Below are positions 12,824-61,098 of a DNA stretch of 64,000 bases, in pieces. A program made the position numbers and the translations under genes. The stretch's first letter is position 1; each line of letters begins with the position of its first letter. The notes below the pieces were generated by a model. It was given only the letters and a program-made list of their open reading frames with translations. It ran no database searches and was not told the DNA's origin. The DNA lies in the NCBI GenBank assembly GCA_964600255.1, contig CAZRIX010000001.1, positions 43,948 to 107,947 on the forward strand, in the 5' to 3' direction. This DNA comes from an uncultured Candidatus Saccharibacteria bacterium (GTDB lineage: Bacteria; Patescibacteriota; Minisyncoccia; Phycocordibacterales; PALSA-1337).

Positions 12824-13582
12824 TTGTTTTTTGTTGTATATTACTATCCGGCTGTTCTTCTCGTTTTTAACGTTAAGAAATCTCCAGCTACGCTAGAAAA
12901 TTCGGTGAAAGGAATAAGAGTGAGAAAACTGGTTCACTTTGGCCTCCACGGCCCATCATGCTCCGGAAAGGGCTACGTCACAGGTCACCTATGCGAACGC
13001 TATCACGGACACGTCTTCGTGATTGGTCTAGGTGACATGATTCGTGCTCGGCGCAGTGCCGATCCAGAATTCAGAGCCTATACTGACCAACAGACGCGCG
13101 ACGGTGTGATGATAGATGACGCGATTGTCACAGAAATGACTCGAGTCCGATTCGAGGAAGGCCTTCGTGCCGGATACGACACCTTCATCTGGGAAGGTTT
13201 CGGACGCAACTACACCCAAATGAAGCAGCAAATGGAGTGGTGGGGCAAAAATGATGGTCGTATCTTCAACCTCCTAGCAGGCCTAGACACAGTGGTCGAG
13301 AGACTTCGTAAGGCAATCAGTGAGGGCAGACGATCTGATCGAGAAGATAACGGTGCGATCACTGTACGTTTTGCGCTTCACGACAGTCAGATGAGTGAAG
13401 TTGCGCGGGCGGTAAGGAACGCTGACCGTTTCTTGACCCCGATCGATGCGAGCGTTGATTTGGGGTTGTTTGCTCGCAAAATTGCGTTCTACGCCAACGG
13501 AGTGCGTGGTTTTAGGGAGGCTTCAGCCCCCACAGAATCATACATGAACAGCCAGCGTACTGCGGATGCAGTTGCAGCATAG
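12824..13582 (+). CDS. P-loop nucleoside-monophosphate kinase, adenylate-kinase-like. High-GC foreign gene. True start is probably near 12905-12930.
   Basis: GLHGPSCSGKGY P-loop. GDMIRA and GFGRNYTQ resemble the adenylate kinase GDLLRA and GFPRT motifs. GC is ~53% in an AT-rich backbone. Confidence 0.45.
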   Translation: MFFVVYYYPAVLLVFNVKKSPATLENSVKGIRVRKLVHFGLHGPSCSGKGYVTGHLCERYHGHVFVIGLGDMIRARRSADPEFRAYTDQQTRDGVMIDDAIVTEMTRVRFEEGLRAGYDTFIWEGFGRNYTQMKQQMEWWGKNDGRIFNLLAGLDTVVERLRKAISEGRRSDREDNGAITVRFALHDSQMSEVARAVRNADRFLTPIDASVDLGLFARKIAFYANGVRGFREASAPTESYMNSQRTADAVAA

Positions 13583-13603
13583 TCCCGCCTCTTACAGGCT
13601 CAA

Positions 13604-13637
13604 AGCCGTCGCCCCCTCACGGGACGACGGCTTTTTT
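13604..13637 (+). terminator. Intrinsic terminator after the kinase-like gene
   Basis: GCCGTCGCCCC...GGGACGACGGC hairpin followed by TTTTTT. Confidence 0.6.
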
Positions 13638-13676: not shown

Positions 13677-15872
13677 CTACCCAACCCATTCTTCAACCAT
13701 CAACATTTTCTTGTCCTGTATAGGCATATCTTTCCAAATCTCTTCTGTTACATATGGAATAAATGGATGTAGTACTTTTAATATTTTTGCCAACGTATGC
13801 AATAGGAACTGCTTGCGGGATTTTATCTCCATTTCATTTCCCTCTTTTAATATTTTCTTACTATCCTCAAGTATTACATCTGCAAAGTTATGCCATGCAT
13901 AGTGGTACAACTTCTCTGCTGCTAGGTATAGACGATAATTCTCAATGTCACCGGTAATCTCTTTTAGTAGACTTGATAGCTCTTCATTTAGTTTTGCATC
14001 AGCATCACTCCACTTATCAAATCCCTTATCCAATTCTTCCCCATCAACTGAAGTCAAAACGAAGCGAGTGATATTCCAAAGCTTATTTGCAAAATGTTTG
14101 TAACCCTTGATCTTATCTTCAGAAAGTTTCAAATCATTACCCGGTCCATTACCTATGATCAAAGACAAGCGTGTTGCATCAGCGCCGTATTTCTCAATCA
14201 TATCGAGAGGATTGATGTTAGTTTCTGGCTTTGACTTAGACATTTTCTCTCCACTTGCTGTACGTACTAGTCCATGTAAATACACAGTTTTAAATGGGAC
14301 AGTATCAAGCAAACATCCAGTCATTAGTATCATACGAGCTACCCAGAAGAAAAGAATATCGTATCCGGTCTCTAGTAAATCAGTTGGATGGAAAGTATTT
14401 AGATCTACAGTCTTCTCTGGCCAACCGAGAGTAGAGAAAGTCCAAAGTCCAGATGAGAACCAAGTATCCAAGGTATCCTCATCTTGCTTCCAGCCCTCAC
14501 CCTTTGGTGCCTCAACTCCAACATAAATCTCTTCACCCTTGTACCAAACAGGAATTCTATGACCATACCAGATCTGTCTTGAAATACACCAATCTCGAAG
14601 ATTATTTATCCAACTAAAATATGTTTTCTCAAATCTATCTGGAACAATATTTATCTTCTTACTCTCAACAGCATCAATCATCATTTCCTTGAGAGTTCTC
14701 TCCTTCCCATTTTTCTTAAACTTTTTGTTAACAGCGATGAACCATTGCAACATAACTTGTGGCTCTATAATTCCACCAGTTCTCTCGGCCGTCGCAACGT
14801 TGTGAGTATAATCTTCTTCTTTTACCAAAAGACCTTTTTCCTTCAACTTCTCTAGCATCTTTTTCCTTGCCTCAGCAATTTTCATTCCAGCAAATTCTCC
14901 GGCGATTGGAAGTAGTTTGCCAAGTCTATCTATAATCTGTTCACCTTCAAGATTATGTCGTTGGGCGATATCAAAGTCCACCATACTATGGAAAGGAGTA
15001 ATAGTCATAACTCCAGTACCAAATTCCATATCGATAGAATCATCCTTTATGATAGTTGCCGTGATGGGTCCGTTTATCCATTCCAAATCAATTTTCTGTC
15101 CATGCTTGTAATCCTCATATCTCTTATCGTCTGGATGCATTACGACGTACTTATCACCGAACTTTGTCTCAGGTCGTGATGTACCAATAGTAAAAGGTCC
15201 GTACTTGAAATAATAAAACTTTGTCTTCTCTTCAACATAAACAATCTCATCGTCAGAAATGGTTGTCTGTCCTTTTGGATCCCAGTTAACTATTCTATTG
15301 CCACGATAAATGAGACCTAGGTCATACATTTCTTTAAATGCAGTTCTTACGGCTAGATTTCTTTTTTCATCCAAAGTAAAAGCTTCGCGAGACCAGTCTA
15401 TAGATGCTCCCATTTTTATAACTTGCCCGACAATAGTATCGTGACTAGCCAAAGCAAAGTCATTCACTCTTTTCAAAAATTCTTCACGCCCCAAGTCATG
15501 ACGGTTCTTGCCTTCTTTCTTTGTTAAATCTTTCTCAACTTTAGATTGAGTAGCGATTGCAGCATGATCAGTTCCAGGAATCCAAAGAGTTTTGTACCCT
15601 CTCATTCTCTTAAAACGAATCAAAATATCCTCTATAGCAATCATAGCAGCGTGACCCATATGCAAAGTTCCAGTAACGTTCGGTGGAGGCAAAACGATGG
15701 TATATGGCTCTACATGACGAGCAGGAAGCTTGTCAGGATTGAAATACCCACTAGCAAGCCACTCTTCGTAAGTTCGACTTTCGACCTCTAGGTGGTTGTA
15801 TGGCTTTAGGAATTTCTCATTTATGTTTGGATTAATATAACCCTCCTTCTGCTCTTTGATGTCTTTGCTCAT
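13677..15872 (-). CDS. valS: Valyl-tRNA synthetase (short form)
   Basis: PPPNVTGTLHMGHA (HIGH) and KMSKS motifs. Editing-domain region present. 731 aa. Confidence 0.8.
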   Translation of the reverse strand: MSKDIKEQKEGYINPNINEKFLKPYNHLEVESRTYEEWLASGYFNPDKLPARHVEPYTIVLPPPNVTGTLHMGHAAMIAIEDILIRFKRMRGYKTLWIPGTDHAAIATQSKVEKDLTKKEGKNRHDLGREEFLKRVNDFALASHDTIVGQVIKMGASIDWSREAFTLDEKRNLAVRTAFKEMYDLGLIYRGNRIVNWDPKGQTTISDDEIVYVEEKTKFYYFKYGPFTIGTSRPETKFGDKYVVMHPDDKRYEDYKHGQKIDLEWINGPITATIIKDDSIDMEFGTGVMTITPFHSMVDFDIAQRHNLEGEQIIDRLGKLLPIAGEFAGMKIAEARKKMLEKLKEKGLLVKEEDYTHNVATAERTGGIIEPQVMLQWFIAVNKKFKKNGKERTLKEMMIDAVESKKINIVPDRFEKTYFSWINNLRDWCISRQIWYGHRIPVWYKGEEIYVGVEAPKGEGWKQDEDTLDTWFSSGLWTFSTLGWPEKTVDLNTFHPTDLLETGYDILFFWVARMILMTGCLLDTVPFKTVYLHGLVRTASGEKMSKSKPETNINPLDMIEKYGADATRLSLIIGNGPGNDLKLSEDKIKGYKHFANKLWNITRFVLTSVDGEELDKGFDKWSDADAKLNEELSSLLKEITGDIENYRLYLAAEKLYHYAWHNFADVILEDSKKILKEGNEMEIKSRKQFLLHTLAKILKVLHPFIPYVTEEIWKDMPIQDKKMLMVEEWVG

Positions 15873-15960
15873 ATATTTATGTATTGAATAATAGCAGAAA
15901 AAGGGGCCTTTTGACTAGTTTTTTATATAAAAAACATTCAATTTTGTCTAATCTTTACTA

Positions 15961-16082
15961 TTGACTTTTCATATAAAATGTGCTAATATATTAGGAGAAG
16001 TTAGAGAAAACTGAGTACTCTGCCGTGCTTTGCACGGAGTGGAGGAAAAAGTGATCTTTGACAATTTAACAGGAGATAGTGT
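15961..16082 (+). promoter_or_regulatory. Consensus-like sigma70 promoter (TTGACT-17-TAATAT) plus conserved structured leader, copy A
   Basis: TTGACT at 15961-15966, 17-nt spacer, TAATAT at 15984-15989. The leader has a CCGTGC/GCACGG hairpin and GGAGG tracts. Copy B at 17070 is near-identical. Confidence 0.6.
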
Positions 16083-16970
16083 ATGGACATTAGTTTTAAC
16101 AAGGAAACCAACGTTTTGAGATGGACCCCAGTTCTATTAACAGATCGATATGTAGTGAAGATGGAAGGTGGAACTGCTCCAGATGACTGGACTAATGAGT
16201 ACTCAGTCCCTGAAACAGTAACCGGCATTAAACTAGTTGAATCGGCGTACTGGGGCAACATCAAGGAAACTGGTGCGAAGATAACCATCACTGCGCTCGA
16301 TGATAGTAGGAGCACTCTGGATACTGTCGACATCAACATTACCATCCCGAAGCAGAAGTGGCACCAGGGAGCGGCCGTGAGGCTGTTCATGCTACTGGCG
16401 GTCCTACTCGGCGCTTGGGCGTCATACTCACAGTACAAATTGGGTAAGGCCAATGACGTTATGGCTGAGCGGGATGAAGCAAAAACACTTCTTGCTGCTC
16501 AGGTGACACTGACAGCAGACTGGAAGAAGGCACACGACAAAGCTACCAACCAGCCAGTTGTAACATTGTACGAAACCAATGTGGTAACGGTGCCTGTGTA
16601 CGAGAAGATCAAAGTCTACGACATCCCGCAAGGGATGCCGAAGGCTGGACCAGCGACGAATGATACGTTGGTCCATTACTTCTCGCCTACCAACCAGCAC
16701 ACGGTGACGAAGTTCATCACCGATGGAGATGGGACTATGTTCCTCACTCCAAACGACTGGCAGATCAACTGCCTGGTCTACGGTAACGTGGCCGATTTCG
16801 ATCGGCTCGTGAACATCGGGGGACTTACCAACCCCCACTGGATCCATTACGGACCAGGAACAAAACTTCCAGAGGCGACCAAGGTGGTCGCATATTGGAT
16901 TAGAAACCGAGTGCAGAACTCCCACCTCAAGGTGGAGTTCGTGCTCACACCCGTCGCCTCTACTCCATAG
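16083..16970 (+). CDS. Hypothetical membrane protein (single central TM) in the high-GC island
   Basis: 295-aa ORF with RBS AGGAGA. GC ~50%. Central hydrophobic helix AAVRLFMLLAVLLGAWASY. No recognisable motif. Confidence 0.5.
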   Translation: MDISFNKETNVLRWTPVLLTDRYVVKMEGGTAPDDWTNEYSVPETVTGIKLVESAYWGNIKETGAKITITALDDSRSTLDTVDINITIPKQKWHQGAAVRLFMLLAVLLGAWASYSQYKLGKANDVMAERDEAKTLLAAQVTLTADWKKAHDKATNQPVVTLYETNVVTVPVYEKIKVYDIPQGMPKAGPATNDTLVHYFSPTNQHTVTKFITDGDGTMFLTPNDWQINCLVYGNVADFDRLVNIGGLTNPHWIHYGPGTKLPEATKVVAYWIRNRVQNSHLKVEFVLTPVASTP

Positions 16971-16990
16971 CAAAGCGCGACCGGCAAAGG

Positions 16991-17025
16991 GAGCCTGGGA
17001 TTTTATTCCAGGCTCTTTTCTTTTG
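16991..17025 (+). terminator. Intrinsic terminator
   Basis: GAGCCTGG-N9-CCAGGCTC perfect 8-bp stem followed by TTTTCTTTT. Confidence 0.65.
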
Positions 17026-17069
17026 TGTGTTTACTAAATAATTTAAAGATTTTTAAAGCATAATTACCA

Positions 17070-17182
17070 TTGACTTTTCATTTAAAATGTGCTAATATAT
17101 TAGGAGAGTTAGAAGGCCAAGTACTCTGACACGCTGTAGCGTGGAGGGAGGAAAGGAAGAACTTTGACAACAAGGATAATTC
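17070..17182 (+). promoter_or_regulatory. Consensus-like sigma70 promoter plus conserved structured leader, copy B
   Basis: TTGACT at 17070-17075, 17-nt spacer, TAATAT at 17093-17098. The hairpin ACGC/GCGT sits where copy A has CCGTGC/GCACGG, which is a compensatory change. Confidence 0.6.
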
Positions 17183-18112
17183 GTGAAAAAACTATCATAC
17201 GAGTCGCAATTTTGGAGATTAGTCGTCTCCATCATGTCACTGCCCATAACGATGTACGTCATCTACAAGGTCGTATACACGGTTGTTGTATTCATGCGAT
17301 TCGATCCATCGGTGGCCGAGAAGTTAGCGAACTGGGTAGGCCTACCGGCCTCCTGGTATATCTACTTCAAGTTCCTACTCGAACGGTTCTGGATTGATGT
17401 AGCACTTGAAGACGTGGTCCTAGAAGATTCCTTCAGTTTCCGGAACAGGAAGGTCGGTGATCAAGCAGACCCATTGGCTTTGCCGAGTGGTCTGAGGTCA
17501 GTTGGTGGACCAGGGTTCAGAGCGAAGGGTTTCTTTGAGACCGTCAAGACGAGATTACCTGTAGTATCTAAAGAGAAGAATGGTGGCCTCGAAGTCGACG
17601 ACAAGCAAACGAACACCTTCAACGTCAGTTACTCCATGACATTTACTAGGGTCAGGGGTAAATTCTCTGTGATTGGTTCAACCTACAAAGAGGAAGAGGC
17701 AGTTAAAACCCTCGAAGCCATCGTTGAGGCGCGAATTGAGGAATTATTCGCAAACGAGCAGGATGGTAGGAATATCCGGGCTTCACTTGATAAACGTAAC
17801 GAGGATCTCTCTAAGGTCCTCGGCGGCGATCGAGATATCAGCACCGAAGAGATTCGTTGTGGGTTCTTCATAACAAAACTTCGAATCAAGACGGTTGATG
17901 AGGCTGCAGCAACAAAACAGCGTAACCAGACCCAAGCGCTGGCAACAGCTGTGAATTCTGCAGCAGATGCTCTATCAAAGGGTATCGGGGCTGGAGCAGA
18001 TCCAAACCTTATTATGGCCCTTGCTGCAAGTGCAGCTGGGGTTAAGGGTGACGGAGTTAAAGTGAGTATAGTCAAGGGTCTCGAGAAAGGCGGCACATAC
18101 AACGTAAGTTAA
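17183..18112 (+). CDS. Membrane protein with weak SPFH/band-7-like features (GTG start)
   Basis: N-terminal TM helices. Central region and Ala/Gln-rich C-terminal helix loosely resemble stomatin/HflKC organisation. Unknown function. Confidence 0.4.
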   Translation: MKKLSYESQFWRLVVSIMSLPITMYVIYKVVYTVVVFMRFDPSVAEKLANWVGLPASWYIYFKFLLERFWIDVALEDVVLEDSFSFRNRKVGDQADPLALPSGLRSVGGPGFRAKGFFETVKTRLPVVSKEKNGGLEVDDKQTNTFNVSYSMTFTRVRGKFSVIGSTYKEEEAVKTLEAIVEARIEELFANEQDGRNIRASLDKRNEDLSKVLGGDRDISTEEIRCGFFITKLRIKTVDEAAATKQRNQTQALATAVNSAADALSKGIGAGADPNLIMALAASAAGVKGDGVKVSIVKGLEKGGTYNVS

Positions 18113-18113
18113 C

Positions 18114-18554
18114 ATGAACACCACACTTCTCAAAAAACTGGCGTGGTATGGGCCAATCGCGGCGATACTAATCGCTACGATGTTCTACATCCGATCCTAC
18201 AACGGGTCAGAAAAGAAGGTACAGCACGTCCCTGTCACTGGCGGTGGTAAGGCTTCGGCAACCACCACAATCACGATCATCAAGGGGGCAACTCCTAGGA
18301 TGATCGATTACCCACATTTCTCCCGGTTCAGATCGGGAATTGTGGAAGATGACGTTGCGTACGTCATACACATCAATCTCGTCGGTCGGCCTGACCATGA
18401 GATTGAAAAAATATTCGTACCTGCCAGAAACGACAGACCGAGCAATTGGTCTGATCCGCTCGCAGGCAAGAATATTGCGAGGATCGGGTTTACGCTCGAT
18501 CCTTCCTCGGCCAAGGATATTGGCCACATCGAGTACGTAGTCGAGAGGCAGTAG
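18114..18554 (+). CDS. Hypothetical membrane-anchored protein, probably co-transcribed with 17183..18112
   Basis: ORF begins 2 nt after the upstream stop. N-terminal TM. High GC. Confidence 0.45.
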   Translation: MNTTLLKKLAWYGPIAAILIATMFYIRSYNGSEKKVQHVPVTGGGKASATTTITIIKGATPRMIDYPHFSRFRSGIVEDDVAYVIHINLVGRPDHEIEKIFVPARNDRPSNWSDPLAGKNIARIGFTLDPSSAKDIGHIEYVVERQ

Positions 18555-18580
18555 ATAATACCACCACTCGAAAACGGCAA

Positions 18581-18608
18581 AGGGGGACCCTATGGGACCC
18601 CCTTTTAC
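18581..18608. terminator. Bidirectional intrinsic terminator between the island and the pilin array
   Basis: GGGGGACCC-TAT-GGGACCCCC hairpin with an A-run upstream and a T-run downstream. Confidence 0.6.
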
Positions 18609-18636
18609 TTTGCATATTTTATTCTAAACAACTTCC

Positions 18637-18966
18637 CTACTGGAATGGATCAGTAACACCCACTGGTGCAAGTGTACTGACTATAACCCTAATTATCCCA
18701 TATGCCGATACCATGATGAACATTCCCGCCGCACTCCAGAATATACTTCTCTTGCCGTCTTCTCTTGCATCAGAATCCTCCTGACTCGCAATCATTTTGA
18801 ATATGCCGTACACAAATGTTACAAAAGACAGTAGGAACATTACACCAAGAATCGGTGTGATTATGTTCAAAGCAATACTATCTAGAAAACCACGTATAGT
18901 GGGGTTCTTCGATAGAACTTGTGACGCAGACTGTGCGTGAGCAATGTTTATCAAGCTAATCATCAA
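18637..18966 (-). CDS. VirB2/TrbC-like two-TM pilin-family protein, paralog 1
   Basis: Signal peptide ending AHAQS. Hydrophobic helix, short Asp/Glu/Arg-rich loop (QEDSDAREDGKRS), second hydrophobic helix. Confidence 0.5.
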   Translation of the reverse strand: MMISLINIAHAQSASQVLSKNPTIRGFLDSIALNIITPILGVMFLLSFVTFVYGIFKMIASQEDSDAREDGKRSIFWSAAGMFIMVSAYGIIRVIVSTLAPVGVTDPFQ

Positions 18967-18973
18967 ATTGGAT

Positions 18974-19345
18974 TTATGGAATCTGTGGTGGTGGTGGAAG
19001 CTGAATGTTGTTTACCTTGTCTGTTGGAAGATTGTTTTGTCCAAACTGGAATGAGTTTGTTAGAAGATATACAAGTCCCCAGATTGATAGGATTGCAAAT
19101 AGACCTATAACTCCATAAAGTATAGCCTGTCCCCCCTTCTTACGAGCTTCCTCATCATCACTACCTGCGATTAGGTATCTGACAACACTGATTATGATCC
19201 ATAGAACTGCAAATGAGATAGCTAGTCTAACGAGCAAGTTACCAATATTTGTTGCCTTCATTGCAACAGAGTTGATGTCATTTAGCTGTTGAGCAAATAC
19301 AAGCGTAGGTGAAAATGCGATAATGGCTGCGATTATTTTTTTCAT
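18974..19345 (-). CDS. VirB2/TrbC-like two-TM pilin-family protein, paralog 2
   Basis: Signal peptide ending VFAQQ. TM. AGSDDEEARKKGGQAILYGVIGLFAIL loop and TM. ~75% identical to paralog 3. Confidence 0.55.
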   Translation of the reverse strand: MKKIIAAIIAFSPTLVFAQQLNDINSVAMKATNIGNLLVRLAISFAVLWIIISVVRYLIAGSDDEEARKKGGQAILYGVIGLFAILSIWGLVYLLTNSFQFGQNNLPTDKVNNIQLPPPPQIP

Positions 19346-19423
19346 GATAATATATTATTTAATAACTACTAAATTATAACAGTTTAAAGGTTTAGCAACA
19401 AATGGGCTGTGGATACGAGAATG

Positions 19424-19795
19424 CTATATATTAGAATTAATCGTAGGGTCCTGTATTCTCAAATTGTTAAAATTTGGTCTTTGATCTTCAGAGAATCTAA
19501 ATGTATTTACTAGAAGATATACCATTCCCCAAATAGACAAAATCGCAAATAGACCAATAACACCATAAAGTATAGCATCACCACCCTTCTTGCGAGCATC
19601 CTCATCGTCACTACCTGCGATTAGGTATCTGACAACATTTACGATTATAAATACTACAGCCAGTGAAATTGCTAACTGGATTACAAGATTACCAATGTTT
19701 ACACTCTTCTGCGCCACATCATTAATATCTCGTAGCTGTTGTGCTGATGCAAATGCTGGAAATAGGATTGTTGTTAGAGTAAGTATTTTTTTCAT
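19424..19795 (-). CDS. VirB2/TrbC-like two-TM pilin-family protein, paralog 3
   Basis: Same architecture. Loop AGSDDEDARKKGGDAILYGVIGLFAIL. Confidence 0.55.
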   Translation of the reverse strand: MKKILTLTTILFPAFASAQQLRDINDVAQKSVNIGNLVIQLAISLAVVFIIVNVVRYLIAGSDDEDARKKGGDAILYGVIGLFAILSIWGMVYLLVNTFRFSEDQRPNFNNLRIQDPTINSNI

Positions 19796-19802
19796 ATTTT
19801 AT

Positions 19803-20411
19803 TTAATTACCTGATGGGTCCGAACCTGTAGCACCGGATTCTGATGGTTGTGTACCACCAGTACTAGGTGACCCACTCGGAGAGTTTGATGTACTACCAG
19901 ATCCGCTACCATTTGAATTCCCTGTTGCTGGCGATCCGCTTGGTCCATTGAAAACATTACCTGAACCGCTTGGAGGGTTTGTTGTTCCACTAGTGCCACT
20001 TGAAGGGTTTGTTGTAGCTCCACTCACACTTGGAACTGTATTACCACCAGATGTACTGCCACCACCGCCATTGAAATTCACAAATGATGGTACGGTTCCT
20101 GGTTGTCTACTATCTAACTGTAGTGTATTAGTAAATATTGCGACTATTCCCCAGAACGAAAGTATTACAAAGAATCCAATTACACTGAATAATACGTACT
20201 TACCTGCTTCAGTTCTGTCCTTTTCAGTAAAGAAGTAGATGAATACATTCCAAACAAACACCACAACGGCAAGACCTATGATCAGTGATAAGGCTATGTT
20301 TAGATATTCAGCTACTAGACGCGCTAGATCCTTCAGTGACTTGCCCTGCGCAAAAGTAAAACCGGGTAAAAGTAGTGTTAATAGTAATAATTTGCTTTGT
20401 AATTTATTCAT
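19803..20411 (-). CDS. VirB2/TrbC-like two-TM pilin-family protein with Gly/Ser/Thr/Pro-rich C-terminal tail, paralog 4
   Basis: Signal peptide. TM. TEKDRTEAGKYVLFSVIGFFVIL loop and TM. Then a ~100-aa low-complexity GSTPN tail. Confidence 0.5.
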   Translation of the reverse strand: MNKLQSKLLLLTLLLPGFTFAQGKSLKDLARLVAEYLNIALSLIIGLAVVVFVWNVFIYFFTEKDRTEAGKYVLFSVIGFFVILSFWGIVAIFTNTLQLDSRQPGTVPSFVNFNGGGGSTSGGNTVPSVSGATTNPSSGTSGTTNPPSGSGNVFNGPSGSPATGNSNGSGSGSTSNSPSGSPSTGGTQPSESGATGSDPSGN

Positions 20412-20420
20412 AAATATTAA

Positions 20421-20846
20421 TTATTTTTTAAATTGCTGTTCAGTAACCAAACCCGCACTGATGAGTGTGGTCTTAACAACTTCTACCACAACCTTTGAAC
20501 TGATGAGTAAGGCAGTACCTATAACGGCATACATAAACCATTCTTTGGCTTCAGATATAGCACTATCATTACCCTGTGCCATTACAAATTTGAATCCTAT
20601 GTATATAAACATAAGCACGGCCACGATAGATCCAAGATATATCGCCAGATCAACAAGAGTCAGCAGAAGATCACTTATACTATTTACTTTGATTGGATTG
20701 TCGAGTTTGACCACTACTGGTGTCTTGTTGGCAGTTGTATCTAAATTACCTTTATTTGCGGTAGTATCAATAGCAGCATTTGTAATAGGAAAACTATACA
20801 CAAATCCGGAAATTAGTAGAATCGCAATAACTAGTATTTTTTTCAT
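20421..20846 (-). CDS. VirB2/TrbC-like two-TM pilin-family protein, paralog 5
   Basis: Signal peptide. TM. AQGNDSAISEAKEWFMYAVIGTALL loop and TM. Confidence 0.5.
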   Translation of the reverse strand: MKKILVIAILLISGFVYSFPITNAAIDTTANKGNLDTTANKTPVVVKLDNPIKVNSISDLLLTLVDLAIYLGSIVAVLMFIYIGFKFVMAQGNDSAISEAKEWFMYAVIGTALLISSKVVVEVVKTTLISAGLVTEQQFKK

Positions 20847-21298
20847 TTTGATGGTGTATTAATAAATGTACCGATCACAGTTTTATTCTTCTCTGTCACG
20901 AACCAGTTGACTACCGTGATAACTGAAATCCATGCTACAAGCATTATTATAAACCCCTTAGCCACTGATGGGAAGATCTTCTTTGCTGTACTTATATTAC
21001 CAGAAGTACCTGTCATATACAGAAGTCCTGCATAGGCCATAAGCACAGTGACTATTGGCACGGTTATGAAGAACAGCCAATTTATCGTTGATTTCACCAT
21101 ATTCATTAGTGCATTGAAATCACAAACTTGTTGTCTGTCTTTCTCTAATGGATTACCATTTATATCTTTAGCCACAACACCATCACACTTCACCAACCCG
21201 CTATAATCTAGCTTTACCGGCTGTGCATTCTGCGCAAAAGAAAATACTGGGACAATAAGAGATAAAAATATTGTAAGTGTTATTAGATATTTTTTCAT
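20843..21298 (-). CDS. VirB2/TrbC-like two-TM pilin-family protein, paralog 6
   Basis: Signal peptide ending SFAQN. TM. TGTSGNISTAKKIFPSVAKGFIIMLVAW loop and TM. Confidence 0.5.
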   Translation of the reverse strand: MKKYLITLTIFLSLIVPVFSFAQNAQPVKLDYSGLVKCDGVVAKDINGNPLEKDRQQVCDFNALMNMVKSTINWLFFITVPIVTVLMAYAGLLYMTGTSGNISTAKKIFPSVAKGFIIMLVAWISVITVVNWFVTEKNKTVIGTFINTPSK

Positions 21299-22587
21299 TT
21301 GTTTTGTAGTGATAGGTTAAGTTCATCACTTGCATTCTTGATCGCAGTATATGTATCCAAACGACCACTTGTGACAGATTGGACCATATTTGTAAATATT
21401 TGGTTTGATCTTACAGGGTCAGCGTCCAGCCAACCTCGTGAAATAAGCGCTGCATCCAAGAAGCTTGCCATATATGGATTGGTAGATCCTTGAGCTATTA
21501 CATCACGCCTAACTGATGGTAAAAATGTTATCTTGCTCAAGATAGACATAGCGTCGCCTGCTGTAAGTATTCGCATAACATTATATGTATTTGCTTGATT
21601 TTGTGAACTTTTTACCAATGACAATCCATACATATTTCCGTATGTAGTTCGTATTGTACCAGTTCTAGCTTGAGGTATCGGAGCAACATCGTAGTCTATG
21701 TTTGGATTCTTTTGCCTTAATTCATTTACCTCTGAAGCAAAACCAAAATATGTAGCCAGGGTTCCAGCTAGGAAACTTGCTTTTGATGATGGTAATGACC
21801 TATTCCAAGAATAGTGTGAATCTCTAGGATCTGAAAACTGAGTAAAGAAAGTCAGTGCAGGTGTAGAAGTTCTAGAACCTGAATATGAACTGTCACTTAG
21901 CCCACTCTGTATACCAGCTGAACCATATAGTGTTACAGGATTACCAGCCTGAAGGAATAGAGTGCTTAGGATTTCTCTAGCATGATCAATATTTGCGAAC
22001 TCTCCCATAGCTATAGAACTTCTTCTAATATTTGAATTGATATCCTTGATGTCTATTTTCTTTCCTATATTTGCAAACTCATCCCAATACACTGGGTACT
22101 TTGCTATACCTGCATTTGTAAACATTGTTCTATTCCAATACATGACCATAGGATCCACTAGGAAAGGAATAGCTGTGAAGCCTGTTTGTGTAATATACAA
22201 ATCTGATTGGCCAATAAATGTATCTTGATATGCACGCTGTGACAGTGCAGTGTTTGGAATCTCGATAATCTTATCTACTAGACCCAATATGTACTGCTGC
22301 GGTACTAGTATTGCGTCGGGGCCTCTACCATTTGCTAGCTCCTCTATGAACTGTCTTCTAAAGTCTGCTGCGGGTATTTGGACATAGTTGATACTCAATG
22401 CTGATGCACGTGTCTGGTTCAACTGATTGACCATCTCGGTAATAGTAGAAGATGGTAGAGTTCCCCATATCGTTACTGTTGGTAACTGAGTTGATGTATT
22501 ACTACTTTTGAATGTGGCGAAAGCAATAACTCCGATCACGATACAAAAAACAAAAACTCCAGTTAAAATTATTTGAAATTTACTCAT
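21295..22587 (-). CDS. Membrane-anchored protein with periplasmic solute-binding-protein-like fold
   Basis: N-terminal TM anchor, then a ~400-aa alpha/beta domain of SBP-like composition. No ABC permease nearby. Start and stop overlap the flanking genes. Confidence 0.35.
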   Translation of the reverse strand: MSKFQIILTGVFVFCIVIGVIAFATFKSSNTSTQLPTVTIWGTLPSSTITEMVNQLNQTRASALSINYVQIPAADFRRQFIEELANGRGPDAILVPQQYILGLVDKIIEIPNTALSQRAYQDTFIGQSDLYITQTGFTAIPFLVDPMVMYWNRTMFTNAGIAKYPVYWDEFANIGKKIDIKDINSNIRRSSIAMGEFANIDHAREILSTLFLQAGNPVTLYGSAGIQSGLSDSSYSGSRTSTPALTFFTQFSDPRDSHYSWNRSLPSSKASFLAGTLATYFGFASEVNELRQKNPNIDYDVAPIPQARTGTIRTTYGNMYGLSLVKSSQNQANTYNVMRILTAGDAMSILSKITFLPSVRRDVIAQGSTNPYMASFLDAALISRGWLDADPVRSNQIFTNMVQSVTSGRLDTYTAIKNASDELNLSLQNK

Positions 22588-23108
22588 TGTTTTTTAAATA
22601 TAATACCATAATGATGATCTCCGGCATCAAAAGTCTTCTCTATTGTAAGACCTACCTTTTGGAAAATACCTTCAGCAAGCATCTGTGGAACTAGTGTCTT
22701 TGGACTCAATGGACTTCCAGATGACCAATCGATAACTAGAAGCTTACCTCCGGACTTCAGAAGTCTCTTTACCTCAAGTGCTAGGTTGTCTCTATCTGCA
22801 ACTTCTATTTGGAAGAGTGTATTTGAAAGAATTACACGATCAGCGATCGCTTCACGAAGTTTTGTTCCACCTAGTTTTTCTATATTACCCCAAACAACCT
22901 CGATATTGCGTAGACCGGCAAGTGCCCCACTGTTTTTAATCTTGTTCAAAAGATCTTGTTGAACATCTACTGCATATACTCGTCCAGAAGCACCGGCTTT
23001 CTTGGCTGCTTCTATTGTATAGAAACCTGATCCAGCACCTAGGTCGACAACTTTCATACCATGGTCGATACCTAACATTGCTATATTTTTTTGAGGGTCA
23101 GAAAACAT
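22584..23108 (-). CDS. Class I SAM-dependent methyltransferase
   Basis: VVDLGAGSGFYT glycine-rich SAM motif. Acidic residue after strand 2 (AVDVQ). Confidence 0.65.
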   Translation of the reverse strand: MFSDPQKNIAMLGIDHGMKVVDLGAGSGFYTIEAAKKAGASGRVYAVDVQQDLLNKIKNSGALAGLRNIEVVWGNIEKLGGTKLREAIADRVILSNTLFQIEVADRDNLALEVKRLLKSGGKLLVIDWSSGSPLSPKTLVPQMLAEGIFQKVGLTIEKTFDAGDHHYGIIFKKQ

Positions 23109-25887: not shown

Positions 25888-26163
25888 ATGAAAAGAATTC
25901 AAATGGTGGGTGTCGCCATTGCTGCATACACTCTCTTAATTACAGTGGAGTACCTTTACCTAAATATATGGTGGTCGATGCCGATTTGGTTATTATCGGG
26001 CGTGACTGCATATAGACTCTCTAACCAGAAGGAGAGTCGCTACGCAATAATGATCCTGTCCTGCATCGCAGGACTGTTCTCTCTCGCCTATCTACTCGGA
26101 TACGTAGTGGCAGAGTACGACATAGAGAGAATTACAAACCCCGGTAAAAAAACCGGGGCATAA
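25888..26163 (+). CDS. Small hypothetical membrane protein
   Basis: 91-aa ORF with two hydrophobic helices. TTGACT-17-TATGAT promoter upstream. Stem-loops plus T-run downstream at 26140-26210. Confidence 0.4.
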   Translation: MKRIQMVGVAIAAYTLLITVEYLYLNIWWSMPIWLLSGVTAYRLSNQKESRYAIMILSCIAGLFSLAYLLGYVVAEYDIERITNPGKKTGA

Positions 26164-39376: not shown

Positions 39377-40306
39377 TTACAAGGACTTGAAGATCCCCAA
39401 CTTAATGAGAATCCAGATAGAAATGCCTGACCAATCAAAGCATCTCTCGAAGGTCGTCTCGCCTTGCCAATACAGTTGACTGCGATCAACTCGTGTATTC
39501 CTCCCCTCCCTTACACATTTAAGTGAAGGGTAGGCGTTATGGTGATTGTTGTGCCACCCTTCACCTAATGTAAGAATCGCGCATATCAAACTATTACGAC
39601 TTTCATCTCCGGTGCTATACCTCTGTGTTCCAATCAAATGCATGGCGGAATTAATGAGGAACGTGCCGTGCCAAAGAATCGTCGTAGCGAAGAAATAAGC
39701 ACACAAGGAAAAGATGAAATTCCAAATGAAAGAAGTATATCCACCAATCGAAAGTAGCCCCCCGACTAGTGAAAATATTCCTCCACCTGAAATAATACCG
39801 ATCCATTGGCGATTCTCGATCCACCTCAGAAACATGTTTCTACCTAAAAGAGGTATGAGTGACCAATCAACAACTCTATCACTCCCCTCCTTAACTACCC
39901 AGAGCCAATGGCACCATGGTATACCTCGCTGTTTGCAACTATGGTGATCCTCAGGCTCGTCTGAGTATCTGTGGTGCCATACATGCTCTGCAGCCCACTG
40001 ACAAACACCACGTTGAGCATCTGCAGATGATATGAAAGCAGAGACATTCTCCATCCACTCAAAACGCAGTCTGAATGAACGGTGGGCAAAATACCGATGT
40101 CTCCACACAGTTATGAACCACATCCCGATCTTGTATCTAAAGAACACCATGAACAAAGAGAGTAGGAGGTTCTCAACACTAAGTGATCCCGCAACACCTC
40201 TCCAAATCAAGGAAAGTAGCCAGGCCACTCCTATCACTTGTACACCGAAAAACACATATGTGTTCGGTGACTTCCAATCTACTTGCGATAACGCTTTCAT
40301 GTACAA
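39377..40306 (-). CDS. Membrane fatty-acid (acyl-lipid/acyl-CoA delta-9-type) desaturase
   Basis: Three His boxes: HRYFAH, HVWHHRYSD and WHNNHHNAYP, in the order and spacing of stearoyl-CoA desaturases. GC ~45%. Confidence 0.65.
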   Translation of the reverse strand: MYMKALSQVDWKSPNTYVFFGVQVIGVAWLLSLIWRGVAGSLSVENLLLSLFMVFFRYKIGMWFITVWRHRYFAHRSFRLRFEWMENVSAFISSADAQRGVCQWAAEHVWHHRYSDEPEDHHSCKQRGIPWCHWLWVVKEGSDRVVDWSLIPLLGRNMFLRWIENRQWIGIISGGGIFSLVGGLLSIGGYTSFIWNFIFSLCAYFFATTILWHGTFLINSAMHLIGTQRYSTGDESRNSLICAILTLGEGWHNNHHNAYPSLKCVREGRNTRVDRSQLYWQGETTFERCFDWSGISIWILIKLGIFKSL

Positions 40307-40448
40307 TCCTTGGTTAAGGTCTGTACTAATTTTAACATATGTAACTAGTTGAATAAGGTGGTGTTAAAAACTTCGATAACATAACCTTACATGCCGTCAG
40401 TCAAAAAACCGTATAGTTATTTTGATTGATCATTATATCAAATCTTTG

Positions 40449-42102: not shown

Positions 42103-45100
42103 CTATTTTCCAAATAGTAATTTCAATATCTTAAGGAAATATGTCTTTGTACCTACAACAATAGCTGATGTCACCTTTGAGATCGTGCCTTTATTACCTT
42201 TTACTGCAGTTTTGTTAGCACCAGCATCATTCTTTGTACTTGAGACAACCCCTATTAATCCTGTAGCCTTCTTAGATACTACACTCGTCCCTGACTCACT
42301 AGCTTTTACTTCCTTAGAATTTTTTGAACTTTCTAGTGGCTTTAATGTTGGCGCCTTTGTGACTGGGTCCGGCACAAGACTTGCAAATGGTGAGGTTAAC
42401 TGCCTTACAAAATTAATTGCTTTATGTGGATTTACAGCGGTCACAATAGCAGCTACTGGAGTTACAATCTCAGGTTCTGGATTGTATATAGTTATAACTA
42501 CACTTGTTGTTGCGAAGTTATTTGATGAATCGCGTGCTACAGCATATACAGTATAGCTACCATCAGCATAACTAGTACTATTGAGAGAAGTAAAATATGG
42601 ACTAGCCACATCCTCCACTCCCAAATATACTCCATCAATCATAAATCGAACTCCAGCTAGCGATACATTATCTACTGCAGATGCAACTATACTTACCGCA
42701 TTTCCAGATACCACTTCAGCGTTAGCTGGAGATACGATGGAAATAACAGGGGCAGTTATGTCTGGCACAATATTTGAAACCGTAATACTTACCGATGTTG
42801 TCGCATAGTTATTTGATGAATCCCGGGCAACCGCAGTGACAACATAATTACCATTTGCAACTGAAGTACTGTCAAAAGATATTGTGTATGGACTACTTGT
42901 ATCTTCTGATCCAAGATTTACATTATCGAGTTTAAACTGTACCCCTGCGACAGCTATGTTATCTGTTGCTGTAGCGGCAATGCTGTAAGAGCTTCCTGAG
43001 ACCGTAGCGAGGTCTGTAGGTGATGTAATAGATACAACTGGATCTGTAGTATCGGGTATTACAACTGCCAAAGCAGAAGCCATATTAGAATTACTTGTTC
43101 CACTAGCATCAACTAGTCTTATTCTGTAATAATAATCAATTCCATCGGAAATATATGGATCAGTAAATGTTGTTGTACCCTCTGGCACCAAATCTGAAAC
43201 TATGTTTTGAGTAAATAGGAAATTCGTAGCTCTATCTACATACAACATATGTGATGTTGTAGCATTGTTTGTCCAAGTCAGATCAACTTGATTTGCTCCT
43301 CTAGTAGCATCCAAACTTGTTGCAGCTGGAGTCAAACTTACTGATGGGAATACATCATCTAGATTCCAACTACTGTTCCATGAAATAGACATCGTATTGT
43401 TTGTTGGGAATGTCAAAGGTAACCAAACATGTCTACTGTTATACAATGATCCAGCGAGATTATTACTATAATCAAATCTATCTCCGATATAAATATATGC
43501 ATCACCACGTCCAGGTATATGCTCTATATCCGTTGTCTGGGAACGGTAAGCAATCATTCTATCTTCCTCAACACTAACCTGGAATGGATTTACAAGTGGT
43601 GACCAATTGCCCATAACACTCGTTGAGGTTGAATATTTATTCTCGTTTGGAGCCCATCCTGTTAGTCCAGATGTAAGTAGGAAGTACACACCATTTCGAA
43701 GTATCATCTGAGGACCCTCACGACCAATCAATACATTTGGTCTAACATATGTTCCAGAAGTGGTTAGATAATCATCTGATAGTTTTGAAATAACGAAATG
43801 CGTATTCGGACCGTCTGAGTATAGTAGATATCCTGATCCATCAGTATCCTTAAATAGGTTCATGTCGTTTAGATAGAATCCATCTGGGTTGTAAGATGAT
43901 GAAGCAATAGTGAATGCCCCGTATGGTGTGTCGTTGTAAGCAACCACTGCTGTAGATTTTCCGGATGCGATAACTCGGTGACCCCATAGTACGTATTTTC
44001 CAGTCGTGGCGTTATATAGCACGTGTGGTCTTTCTATCATATAACTTCTACCGAGATAAATAACAGGACCTTCATCTTTCCAATTTATCAAATCACTTGA
44101 TGAGTAACATGATATACCTACTGCTTCGATTTCTGGATCGTTTGCATTAAAAATCTGTCCGTACCAATAGTACTTACCGTTAAAGAATTGTATTTCTCCA
44201 TCATGTGACTCAATCAAATGGTTATCAGTATCTAACCAATCCTGTCCTGGCTTAAAATCGATATCGAACCAATATCTAGATTGAGGCGAGACTTCAGAGA
44301 CGAACATGCCATCACTTATAGCTATAGATTGAACTGTGGATGATGCACTCAGTACAAACGGTGCAGTGTATAGTACCGTTGTACCTTGTGGGACTCCGTC
44401 TACTACACTAGGAATACTACCGTCAGTTGTATAGTAAATAGATGCGTTGGTTGTGATACTAGAAAGTCTTACTCTAATTGGTTGTGCATACTTTCCTCCA
44501 TTTGGCGAAGCTGTAGGGTGAACAGGGGTATATGGAGTGGTTGTGCCAGGATTTCCAATCAATCTAAATTCGGCTAGGTTACCGTAGTTTCCATCTGGCA
44601 TAACTAGTCTGTAAAATCTGTATGCACTACCGCCGGCGTCGATAGCAATCTCACTCATCTGTCGCTGAGCATAATACGGAGGATATGGTTGTATTGTGTG
44701 TATAGTTGTCCAAGGTCCAGTACTAGAACTGACATTTGCTCCTTGCAGATATGCACCGTAAACTTGAACTGTGTATCCTGGTCTTGGTGCAATCTTCATT
44801 CGCGTTACAACAGCTGGTGCCTTTAGATCAAGGCCAACTAGAGAACCGTTTGCACTTTGAGAATCCCACCATGTAGAAGTATTGCCGTCATATACCTTTG
44901 AGTAAACATTTCCACTGTTATTGTAACTTCCTGGAGTTCCAAACTGGTATGCAGGTGAGATACTAAACTGTATTTCTCCAGTTGAAGTCGCTACCGGACA
45001 TGTTGCGGTGGTCAATGTCCTGTTTGGTCCATATGAAGTACCAGATAGGTTTATTGTATATGCTCTGAAGTTATAGACGGTAGCACATGATAGACCACTT

Positions 45101-48100
45101 ACTGTTAATGAGTATGGACCTACTGGATACAATCCAGTTTCAGTAGTTGTAGCTCCATAAGCGGAGTTTAGACCATACTGAAAACCTCTGGCTGTAGAAC
45201 TTGCTGCTCCGTCGTTTGTAATATTACCATTTAGTATTGCAGTGAAGCTTGTCGTTGAACTAGCTGCGGATGTAGTGATTGTTGCAGGCATAGAGTTATT
45301 CACGATCACTCCAATTGATGTAGACGTACTTACATTCCCTGTTGCATCCGCAGCAACAACTGAAATTGTATGATATCCATCTGCTACTGAAGTTGAATTC
45401 CAACTGATTGAATATGGTGATGTAGTTCCAGACGCACCTATACTAGTATTGGTATCAATTTTAAACTGTACACTTCCTATTCTCACGTTATCAGAAGTTG
45501 ATGCTGTAAGAGTTACGCTCGATCCTGTTAATGTTGAGCTGGCTGTTGGGACTACAATTGCTGTAGTCGGAGGAATTGTGTCAGCCAAAACTGTTATGGT
45601 TGTAGATGCGCCAGAATCTGGAGCCGTGATCCTCAATGTACCAGTACTACTACCAGCGGATACGGTGATGTTGGCACTGGTAGAGCTTGATACTACTTGT
45701 GACGTTATTGCTGCACCTGTACCACCACTTATTCCAAATGTAGGCGAACCGGGCGTACCAGAAGTCCAGCTGGTTGCATTTCCAGTCAGTGTTATCACAT
45801 TATTTATTGAGTTCTGATATATAGTCGGAGTATTGGCAGAAACAGTAATCTGGGTGTTTATTAGATTGACCAGAACGTCAGTTGATGTACCTACGTTGCC
45901 TGAAGAGTCGGTAACAATTACTCGTATATTATGAGGACCATCAGCAATACTTGCTGAATTCCATACTATTGAATACGGCGATGTTGTTCCAACCGCGCCG
46001 ATGTTTGTATTATCTACCTGAAACTGGACTGAACTTACACTAGTATCATCACTTGAAGTTGCCGTTAGAGTAACATTACCCAAAAGGTCTGCACCGTTTA
46101 CTGGAGACGTAACTGTTCCGGTTGGTGGAGTAACATCGGCTGATAGCAGGAAATTCGCGATAGCTGTTGTAGAGTTTGAAGTACCTGCAGCAGTCACAGT
46201 TCTGATTCTGTAGTAATATCTAGTATCGTTCACAATGTCAGTATCTACAAAATTTGAAATGGTAGTTGTTGCTCGTATTGAAATAAAGTTTTCAGTAAAA
46301 ATATTGTCAGTTGCCCTATCGATGTACAACTCATAGGAGTTCGTCTCATTATTAGTCCAAGACAGATTCACAGTCAGAGCATTCTTGGTTGCTGTGAGAC
46401 CGGTTGCGGCTTGTGTTGGTATAGAGGTTGTAAAAGCCTCGTCCAAAGTCCAGCCTGGATTCCAAGAGATCGACATGGTGTTGTCGGTTGGAAATGTAAT
46501 AGGTAAAAATAAATATGTACTATTGTATAGCGAGCCACTAGCCGTTGCTGAATTATCAAACCTATCTCCCAAATACATATACCCTTCGGTCCTGCCTTGG
46601 ATGGTTAATATGCCAGATGTATGAGATCTGTAAGCGATCGTATTATCTTCAGTTGCACTTGATTGAAAAGGATTAACTAGTGCAGAAAATGTACCCAGAG
46701 GACTGGTTGATGTTGAATATTTATTTGTTGTAGCAGTCCAACTATTTTGTCCACTATTTAACAAAAAGTAAACTCCATTTCTCTTTACCATTGCTGGCGC
46801 ACTTCTATTTGCATTCGCAGCTGAAATATTGGAAACACCAGACATACCTTCGTATGTACTATCTAGCTTGGAAATAATCATTTTAGAATTATCACTAGAT
46901 GTGTAAATTATGTATGCCGTACCATCTGTATCTTTAAATAGGTTGAGATCGTTCAATCCTAGGGCATCAGGATTAAGAGATGTGGTAACAACCCTAAACG
47001 GCCCGTATGGCGTACTTGATGTTGCGACTATTGCTCTAGAGTTTGTTACGTTTCTTGCCCACATAACATACCTACTTGTAGTAGCGTTATATATAACGTG
47101 TGGTCTTTCTAGTATATATGATGTATTTACATTAAAAACCAACCCCTGACTAGTCCAATTTACTAGGTCGGATGATGTATATAAGTTAACACCAAGTTTT
47201 TCCAACTCAGGTGAAATATTGTTCATTGACTCACCGTACCAGTAATATTTTCCATTGAAATAACTTATACCACCAGTATGTGCGTCTATGATATTGCCGT
47301 TATTGTCATGCCACGTGATTCCAGATCGGATTGCGGGATTGATGAAAAAATACGCTGGATTTGAAACCTCTGAGACATATGTATTTGCACTTACAGCAAT
47401 ACTTTTGATAGTCGTTGTTGCTGTTGTAGTTGCCATGAATGGACCTGTGTACAGACGAGTAGTACCTTGTGGTGAACCTCCACTAAAAGTTGGTGTCGTA
47501 CCATCGTTTGTATAATAAATAACTGCGTCCGTGGTTGAACTAGTAATAGTTACTTGAACTGGTTGTGCAAACTTTCCACCCATAGGACTAATCTTTGGGA
47601 CAACTGGTACGTATGGAGTCGTACTTGAAGCAATACCAATTAGTCTCATTTCTCCTAGAGATCCGTAGGCACCGTTTGGCATGACTAGGCGGTAATATCT
47701 GTAGAACAATCCACCAGTATTTATTGGTATTTCAGAAAATTGTTTCTGAGGATAGAACGGAGGATAACTAGGTATTGTATAAATCGTTGTCCAAGGTCCT
47801 GTAGAAGAACTCACGGTTGCACCTTGGAAAACAGCGCCATGTAGTCTAACCGTGTATCCTGTGCGTGGTGCTACCCACAGTTTTGTAACTTGCGCATTTA
47901 CAGTTAGATCCAATCCTACGTTTGAACCATTGGCAAAAGACTGATTGGCATCCCACCAACTAGTCAAATCTCCATCGAATACTTTGGCAATCGTGTTTCC
48001 GTTATTGAAATAACTTCCAGCTGTTCCTATTTGATATTGTGGAGCAATACTAAACTGAACTTCTCCTGTTGCTGCATATATGATTATAGGGTAAACAAAG

Positions 48101-60657: not shown

Positions 60658-60737
60658 AATAAAATTTCAAGCGAATTATTAATAATCGAATATCACTTAT
60701 TATATCAAACAAAAAACCTCCTGTTAAGGAAGTTTTT

Positions 60738-61098
60738 TGATGTAACATATCGATAAGCCGAGTTCTGTACTTGGAAGTTTACACGACCAAGCGACAATCA
60801 TTTATCTGGGATTTACTTTACAGTAAACCTCAAGCGGCACTCTCAGTAGGTATTACTACCTACCAAGCACGGCCTTGCACTCAGGTAAGGATTTTGCCGT
60901 TGCACCTTGTATGTTGCCATACAAACTAATCCTAACGGATCCACTAGTCGTTTCCAACCAGTGCGTCTCTGTTCGCACCTCGCACCTCACGGCGGACGGG
61001 CGTTACCCGCTACCCTTTTAGAAGATTGCTCCTCCAAAGTGCTCGGACTTTCCTCTATTTATGCTTACGCATATACAGCGATTGTCTGATATGTACAA
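60738..61098 (-). ncRNA. rnpB: RNase P RNA (bacterial type)
   Basis: Minus strand carries the P4 halves GAGGAAAGUCCGAGC and ACAGAACUCGGCUUAUCG, plus GGGUAACGCC. P1 pairing UGUACAUAUCAGA with UCGAUAUGUUACA sets the ends. Confidence 0.8.

Follow-up and report, generated by a model that had tools for sequence, protein, structure and literature searches.

NfeD proteins are the usual operon partners of SPFH proteins, and the SPFH-NfeD operons have been classified by Hinderhofer et al. 2009 (PMC2636767). The NfeD partner is a protein of ~140-150 amino acids (aa); its N-terminal part contains hydrophobic stretches, typically three, and its C-terminal domain is soluble and all-beta (PMC2636767). E. 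coli QmcA-YbbJ (PDB 8z5g) and YqiK-YqiJ, B. subtilis FloT-YuaF and P. horikoshii PH1511-PH1510 make up the comparison set that is used here. Arrays of VirB2-like pilin genes are the other described system of relevance; they are described as widespread in Patescibacteria, and one of them is cited as essential in the cultivated relative Ca. S. epibionticum ML1 (PMC12102498). The subject of this text is a group of three GC-rich genes, g1, g2 and g3 (the trio), at positions 16083-18554 of a 64,000-nucleotide (nt) stretch of contig CAZRIX010000001.1. (This whole stretch is referred to as the window.) The trio lies between valS and a pilin array of the same kind, and g2 has the predicted fold of an SPFH protein.

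The trio is taken, with moderate confidence, to be a membrane module that is specific to one Paceibacteria clade (Ca. Taylorbacteria with its relatives) and has been inherited vertically, not a recent import. It is probably an SPFH scaffold module that serves the neighbouring cell-surface apparatus.

Gene layout and composition

The three open reading frames are all on the + strand, and their sizes and spacing are as originally described:

16083-16970, + strand: g1, 295 aa, single-pass membrane protein
17183-18112, + strand: g2, 309 aa, GTG start, membrane protein with a predicted divergent SPFH/Band-7 fold
18114-18554, + strand: g3, 146 aa, ATG start 2 nt past the stop codon of g2, which leaves 1 nt between the two

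All three genes are coding and under purifying selection, since the ratio of nonsynonymous to synonymous divergence (dN/dS) is 0.09-0.38 against orthologues. As far as sequence can tell, g2 and g3 are co-transcribed and translationally coupled: the close spacing seen in the window becomes an overlap in relatives, and the two genes are paired in every relative.

The original prediction of a GC-rich, three-gene island between valS and the pilin array holds, with 48-51% GC in the trio (0.509, 0.482 and 0.510 for g1, g2 and g3, respectively) against 37.6% for 55 other genes. (What this background means operationally is the 55 window genes outside the GC-rich set; their mean GC is 0.376, standard deviation 0.029, maximum 0.431, and their mean GC at third codon positions, GC3, is 0.315, standard deviation 0.044.) GC3 is 0.605, 0.510 and 0.612 in the three genes, and the z-scores of the trio against the background are 3.7-4.7 for GC and 4.4-6.7 for GC3. 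Codon usage is atypical: TTC, TAC, AAC and ATC stand at 83%, 85%, 71% and 58% in the trio and at 41%, 37%, 35% and 24% in the background, and the G-ending codons CGG, GGG and ACG are also raised. The intergenic stretches within the island are AT-rich (GC 0.30 and 0.38), as is the window as a whole (38.9% GC). Four further genes within the same 64 kb are GC-rich as well (12920-13582, 25888-26163, 39377-40306 and 49447-50418). The atypical composition claimed for the island is thus borne out relative to the 55 background genes, but the GC shift is not unique to g1-g3 within the window.

The SPFH-fold protein g2

The structural model of g2 depends on the depth of the alignment that is supplied to AlphaFold2: the predicted local distance difference score (pLDDT) is 36 with 4 sequences and 78 with the 21-sequence family alignment, with a predicted template-modelling score (pTM) of 0.64 for the latter. 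The model from the 21-sequence alignment has helices at 10-39 and 42-69, a beta-rich alpha/beta domain at ~70-240 and a long helix at 242-268; a transmembrane segment at 13-31 is kept in orthologues. In this model g2 has the layout of an N-terminal membrane anchor, an SPFH domain and a C-terminal helix. When the model is compared with PDB structures by Foldseek, all 42 matches at E<=0.001 are SPFH proteins (best E 6.9e-8), with prohibitin, HflK/C, stomatin, QmcA, flotillin and vault represented; a viral fold library also returns SPFH proteins.

Identity of g2 to solved SPFH proteins is only ~10-17%. Among the 21 family members, 4 have sub-threshold matches to the Pfam Band_7 model (best E 6.5e-4, 20.2 bits versus a cut-off of 23.6). 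Alignment of the g2 profile with the single E. coli QmcA sequence by hhalign is insignificant, a single-sequence template making this test too insensitive. Judged by its predicted structure, g2 is an SPFH-fold protein that is too divergent for the Pfam model, and the SPFH/band-7-like character first ascribed to the 309-aa protein is confirmed at the level of the modelled fold (AlphaFold2 and Foldseek).

The partner proteins g3 and g1

The g3 protein begins with a hydrophobic helix and ends in a domain of ~100 aa, with a total length of 135-165 aa across the family. Its position in the operon is that of NfeD in SPFH operons. (The hhalign probability of the g3 profile against E. coli YbbJ is 0.4%; here too the single-sequence template makes the comparison too insensitive.)

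The g1 protein has a variable N-terminal region, one transmembrane segment at ~96-114 and a conserved C-terminal domain of ~100 aa with the pattern P..DW..C.VY..DFDR...W.RN..KVEF. The N-terminal domain looks FN3/Ig-like by eye, and its match to Big_15 is weak. The g1 protein is the fastest evolving of the trio. Its length in relatives ranges from 214 to 632 aa, with Pro/Ala/Thr-rich inserts and charged, coiled-coil-like ones. No model of Pfam, PHROGs, PADLOC or NCBIfam is matched at threshold by g1, g2 or g3, and profile searches of the three against PDB sequences return noise only; that g1 and g3 could not be tied with confidence to a known family had been stated from the outset.

Promoters, leaders and terminators

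The island comprises two self-contained + strand transcription units, g1 and g2-g3, as originally proposed, with a duplicated promoter block and two strong intrinsic terminators:

15961-15989, + strand: putative promoter of unit 1, TTGACT, 17 nt, TG-extended TAATAT
15990-16082, + strand: leader 1 (of g1), with an imperfect stem-loop of ~65 nt (~16000-16064), -25.8 kcal/mol, z -3.8
16987-17019, + strand: intrinsic terminator of unit 1, a 15-pair stem in the scan and then a T run, -23.5 kcal/mol, z -4.8
17070-17098, + strand: putative promoter of unit 2, TTGACT, 17 nt, TG-extended TAATAT, nearly identical to that of unit 1
17099-17182, + strand: leader 2 (of g2-g3), a paralogue of leader 1
18579-18605 plus T run (to 18610), between g3 and the first pilin gene: intrinsic terminator of unit 2, -18.2 kcal/mol, z -3.1

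Each promoter matches the σ70 consensus at 9 of 12 positions, so that their description as near-perfect was overstated. A scan of the region finds 12 promoter-like sites against a shuffled expectation of 14.7, and this absence of an excess makes the scan alone non-significant. The promoters are nevertheless credible because the 44-nt block that contains the first of them (15955-15998) is duplicated, with 95% identity, at 17064-17107, and because it is conserved in relatives: the promoter is kept 5' of the g1 orthologues in L002, L003 and L004. (L-numbers designate the related contigs and lineages that were compared; W is the window.)

The leaders of the two units are ~85-95 nt long. In leader 1 the conserved motif CTTTGACAA (16056-16064) forms the 3' side of the stem, the apical hairpin is CCGUGC/GCACGG, and an AGGAG Shine-Dalgarno sequence comes after the stem-loop. 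Leader 2 has the CTTTGACAA motif at 17162-17170 and an apical hairpin that is altered on both sides (CACGC/GCGUG). When the leaders of W, L002, L004-L007, L014 and L015 are folded singly, most of them give an imperfect stem-loop of ~65 nt whose 3' arm is the conserved YTTTGACAA, and pairing of the apical hairpin is kept while its sequence varies (CCGUGC/GCACGG, CACGC/GCGUG, CACAC/GUGUG and CUACAU/GUGUAG). The more distant lineages L092, L095 and L009 retain a hairpin followed by a motif of the (T/C)GACAA type. RNAalifold yields no consensus structure from MAFFT alignments of the leaders, in which the hairpins are out of register. By count alone YTTTGACAA is not enriched in the window (3 matches versus 2.4 expected), and only two sites, those of leaders 1 and 2, have it in a leader-like context; its significance therefore lies in position and conservation. 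An Rfam scan of the leader finds nothing at gathering score (matches at E<=10 are far below the gathering scores and none supports a family). Eleven contigs come up in a metagenome scan with the promoter core, and only 1 of them has the leader and g1, which implies that the promoter core is generic and the leader specific. The structure does not include the Shine-Dalgarno sequence, so that a role of the leader in stabilising mRNA or in binding a protein is more likely than one in switching translation.

The terminator of unit 2 was not picked up by a simple scan because of an A.A mismatch in its stem. Its placement between the converging g3 and pilin array would allow it to act in both directions, and equivalent hairpins are found 3' of g3 in L007, L092 and L097. 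The same CGGCAAAGGG string precedes both island terminators (at 16978-16990 and 18574-18585), so that the two units have sequence in common at both ends.

Distribution and synteny

Relatives of valS place the organism among Ca. Taylorbacteria/Paceibacteria (Patescibacteria). The g2 family is small: among 5.8 billion proteins it makes up 4 clusters at 90% identity, and a profile search of 1.84 billion protein representatives finds 18 clusters; the cluster counts for g1 and g3 are 8 and 5, respectively. A scan of genome contigs with g2 as query gave no match. The genes that flank the trio in the window are the following:

13677-15872, - strand: valS, the flank on the g1 side of the island
18637-21298, - strand: T4SS_pilin array (context outside the island), five VirB2-like T4SS_pilin genes (PF18895) and a gene for a 151-aa membrane protein, converging on g3
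18637-23108, - strand: the larger block, comprising the five T4SS_pilin genes, the 151-aa membrane protein, a 430-aa SBP_bac_1/8 protein and a 174-aa methyltransferase

The trio occurs together, and in synteny with the pilin array, across lineages. The order g1, g2-g3, converging pilin array, SBP gene, methyltransferase gene recurs in L002, L003, L004, L007, L014, L015, L092-94 and L097, and the 18637-23108 block keeps its order alongside the trio in all of the long contigs that were examined. Identity of g2 to the window protein is 77-89% in L002, L003 and L004 and falls to ~20-23% in the more distant syntenic lineages. The upstream neighbour varies (valS in W and L007, rbfA/IF-2 in L092 and L097, other genes elsewhere), and the pilin side is constant in all lineages examined. 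On the short contigs L005, L006, L009 and L095, g1-like, g2 and g3 genes are found together. Every member of the g2 family that lies on a long enough contig has a Paceibacteria-type, pilin-array context, and since this is the context of all members that can be judged, no outside donor is visible.

Probable maintenance of the high GC content

The GC content of the trio is above that of its flanks in all eight lineages: 0.48-0.51 versus a flank mean of 0.39 in W, 0.47-0.56 versus 0.37 in L092 and 0.50-0.54 versus 0.44 in L097, for example. GC3 of the trio is 0.15-0.3 above the flanks in most lineages. Synonymous divergence (dS) between W and L004 is ~1.4-1.9, that is, saturated, and the proteins of W are ~21-23% identical to those of L007 or L092. 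Over such a distance, the compositional trace of an old transfer would be expected to have faded. Because the elevation persists between lineages whose dS is saturated, high GC3 appears to be actively kept and to be no residue of the origin of the DNA. We infer that some force keeps GC3 high in the trio, and two candidates suit the data: codon selection driven by high expression, and GC-biased gene conversion, the locus being one that recombines. The bias towards C-ending codons, the strong promoters, the 5' stem-loops and the tight terminators fit codon selection for high expression; the rise of the G-ending codons CGG, GGG and ACG speaks against it.

That DNA is exchanged at this locus is suggested by L002 and L003, whose flanks are 98-100% identical (dS 0-0.2), and whose g1 and g2 are only 81% (dS 0.42) and 83% (dS 0.81) identical, respectively. 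The g2 allele of L003 is nearer to the window allele than the flanks predict. P0012, a g1 homologue on an ENA contig, is a mosaic: its N-terminal two thirds are identical to window g1 (16083-16970), and it then turns L003-type (L003 8836-9723) over ~30 residues. Divergent g1 and g2 alleles in near-identical backgrounds suggest allele exchange, and these are signs of allele replacement within the clade at the trio locus, which fit GC-biased gene conversion.

Signatures of mobility are absent from the locus: there is no integrase or transposase gene among the neighbours and no flanking direct repeat, the nearest tRNA gene is >20 kb from the island, and the only repeats are the internal duplicates of promoter and leader. 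A scan of IMG/VR viral contigs with the g2 alignment finds no relative. (A diversity-generating retroelement, a retron, an integron cassette and a prophage remnant were also considered; hallmark genes or repeats of none of these are present.) Recent acquisition, which the original prediction had favoured, is unsupported because the trio has the same position in divergent lineages, is GC-enriched in all of them and comes without integrase, nearby tRNA gene, flanking repeat or viral relative.

A proposed role and its alternatives

On the analogy of HflK/C, QmcA-YbbJ, stomatin, flotillin and prohibitin, g2 would form a large ring- or cage-shaped assembly at the cytoplasmic membrane and fence off a microdomain. 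In this analogy g3 may be the anchor or adaptor subunit of g2, in an NfeD-like role, and g1 may be a co-regulated client or partner with its conserved C-terminal domain. The common promoter and leader would couple expression of the two units, and the leader might also stabilise mRNA. It is a matter of speculation that the scaffold has as its clients the proteins encoded by the adjoining pilin/SBP cluster, the cell-surface apparatus on which these episymbionts depend. The most specific form of this proposal has the trio as a dedicated scaffold for the VirB2-like pilin and cell-surface apparatus of Paceibacteria, under an undescribed structured leader (a stem-loop that ends in YTTTGACAA) and at a recombination hot spot that has long held GC 10-15 points above the genome by allele exchange and GC-biased conversion or codon selection; it is put forward tentatively and is, taken as a whole, doubtful. 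A membrane stress or host-interaction module is possible.

A number of observations weigh against the trio as an inherited SPFH scaffold module for the pilin apparatus. Its link to the pilins is conserved adjacency alone, and the two are not co-transcribed, since the genes converge. L012 and L013, which by valS (81-82% identity) are the nearest two GTDB species, lack g2 and g3; between pilins and valS they have a single GC-rich gene (L012 2685-3953, - strand, 53% GC; L013 597-1607, - strand, 48% GC) whose C-terminus is weakly g1-like (hhalign E 8.6e-4). Since these two species keep just the one g1-like gene at the site, loss of g2 and g3 is possible. In L014 and L015, g2 and g3 exceed their flanks in GC only slightly. 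At the level of the proteins, g2 does not reach the threshold of Pfam Band_7 (PF01145; no match at E<=1); g3 has, in its 146 aa, one hydrophobic stretch in place of the three that are typical of NfeD, and no NfeD similarity is detected, either as a Pfam match (PF01957) or as a PDB sequence match with the g3 profile. Homologues of g1 and g3 beyond the module are not detectable, and positive-inside counts are ambiguous as to the topology of the trio proteins.

Alternatively, g2 and g3 might be a generic pair of SPFH protein and partner that acts in membrane quality control or stress. Like QmcA-YbbJ or HflK/C, the pair would then modulate FtsH or other proteases; it would stand next to the pilins by inherited gene order, without functional meaning, and g1 would be an unrelated neighbour. 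The fold matches of g2 include the HflK/C-FtsH and QmcA-YbbJ complexes, g2-g3 have the operon order of qmcA-ybbJ, and gene order is generally conserved in these small genomes, where the SBP, methyltransferase and gyrA genes also stay put. However, the promoter and structured leader that are common to g1 and g2-g3 across lineages argue for co-regulation of all three genes, the upstream neighbour changes (valS; rbfA/IF-2) and the pilin side never does, and evolution this fast, or allele exchange, is not expected of a housekeeping pair; the generic pair is judged unlikely. Rapid divergence of lineage-restricted proteins and the swapping of alleles between close strains would suit a membrane module for anti-phage defence or abortive infection, or an arms-race locus that concerns phage receptors or immunity, as would the loss of g2 and g3 in some species, the autonomy of the units and the highly variable length of the g1 N-terminal region (in proteins of 214-632 aa). 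The defence function that was originally entertained is, however, without PADLOC support (no match at E<=1 for g1, g2 or g3) and has no PHROG or NCBIfam defence match to its credit; nuclease, protease, NTPase or other effector domains are lacking, the site is fixed, conserved and no defence island, and dN/dS is well under 1 throughout. It is accordingly rated improbable.

Least probable is a recently acquired foreign island from a higher-GC donor. The trio's GC and GC3 at 4-7 standard deviations over the window genes, its atypical codon usage, the units' own promoters and terminators, and the divergent alleles of L002 and L003 (so that DNA does move at the locus) are what such an island would present. 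Against it, position and gene order are constant even where g2 is only 21-23% identical, GC is raised in all lineages despite saturated dS, and integrase gene, tRNA gene, flanking repeat and IMG/VR homologue are all missing; all recovered contexts are of the Paceibacteria type, the AT-rich promoters resemble the host's own, and the exchange that is seen is allele replacement inside the clade.

Attachment to other microbes is the way of life of Patescibacteria, and their surface machinery is central to it. If the trio is an inherited scaffold module, an SPFH module beside a pilin array would be a concrete, testable candidate for the membrane organisation of this machinery. The syntenically conserved, maintained GC enrichment of a few genes in an AT-rich genome also counsels caution against equating high GC with recent transfer, and a conserved structured leader that is common to two transcription units and has no Rfam family is unusual.

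Other features of the window

On the other side of valS lies a further GC-rich gene (12920-13582, + strand, 53% GC) with its own promoter and a strong terminator (13603-13636). Its product is a divergent P-loop protein that resembles adenylate kinase (Pfam ADK, 1.7e-9, under the NCBIfam cut-offs). A gene of similar size and raised GC occupies this position in L003, L007, L014 and L015; L012 is without the adenylate-kinase-like gene. Of all window genes, the one at 49447-50418 (- strand) is highest in GC (57%, GC3 0.65); it encodes a protein of 323 aa with a signal-peptide-like N-terminus and no family match; it adjoins the gene for a 2026-aa protein (42103-48183, - strand) and that for a 339-aa protein with 33/75-nt tandem repeats (48882-49209). 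The remaining two GC-rich genes, both of 45% GC, encode membrane proteins: a 91-aa protein after gyrA (25888-26163, + strand; a small + strand gene is found there in L003 and L092) and a 309-aa protein (39377-40306, - strand) with a weak desaturase-like match (NF049918, E 7e-10, far under the cut-off).

The last gene of the pilin array (20843-21298, - strand) encodes the 151-aa protein, which has weak, sub-threshold matches to YqiJ_N (E 0.014) and T4SS_pilin (E 0.048). YqiJ_N is the membrane part of an NfeD-type SPFH partner; these matches are probably transmembrane-segment noise. A bacterial class A RNase P RNA gene is at 60737-61097 on the - strand (135.6 bits) and tRNA genes are at 40448, 40957, 51950 and 53767; all are housekeeping features of the ordinary kind, and none of them adjoins the island.

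Comparison with known systems

A description of the trio, or of its pairing with a pilin array, was not found in the literature searched. The five-gene T4SS_pilin (PF18895) array next to it is of the same kind as the arrays described in PMC12102498; in contrast to the account given there, in which no SPFH gene is mentioned (0 occurrences), the array is here paired with the trio. The HflK/C cage that encloses FtsH (PDB 7vhq, 7wi3) differs in that the trio lacks a second, paired SPFH paralogue and has neither ftsH nor hflX next to it. FliL, which forms an SPFH-like ring round flagellar stator units, is a weaker match to g2 than the classical SPFH proteins; it lacks the C-terminal coiled-coil region, and flagellar genes are not present.

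The closest likeness is to the SPFH-NfeD operons: in both, a membrane-anchored protein of the SPFH fold (for g2, as modelled) is followed by a coupled membrane protein, of ~146 aa in the case of g3, with an N-terminal hydrophobic part and a small C-terminal domain. E. coli qmcA-ybbJ has the same order as g2-g3, with a 4-nt overlap. The trio departs from these operons in that g2 is under the Band_7 threshold and g3, with its one hydrophobic stretch, has no NfeD signal. Compared with known SPFH operons with small membrane partners, what is new here is a third, co-regulated gene (g1, which has no counterpart in them), a dedicated structured leader, and an elevated GC content that is conserved with the locus.

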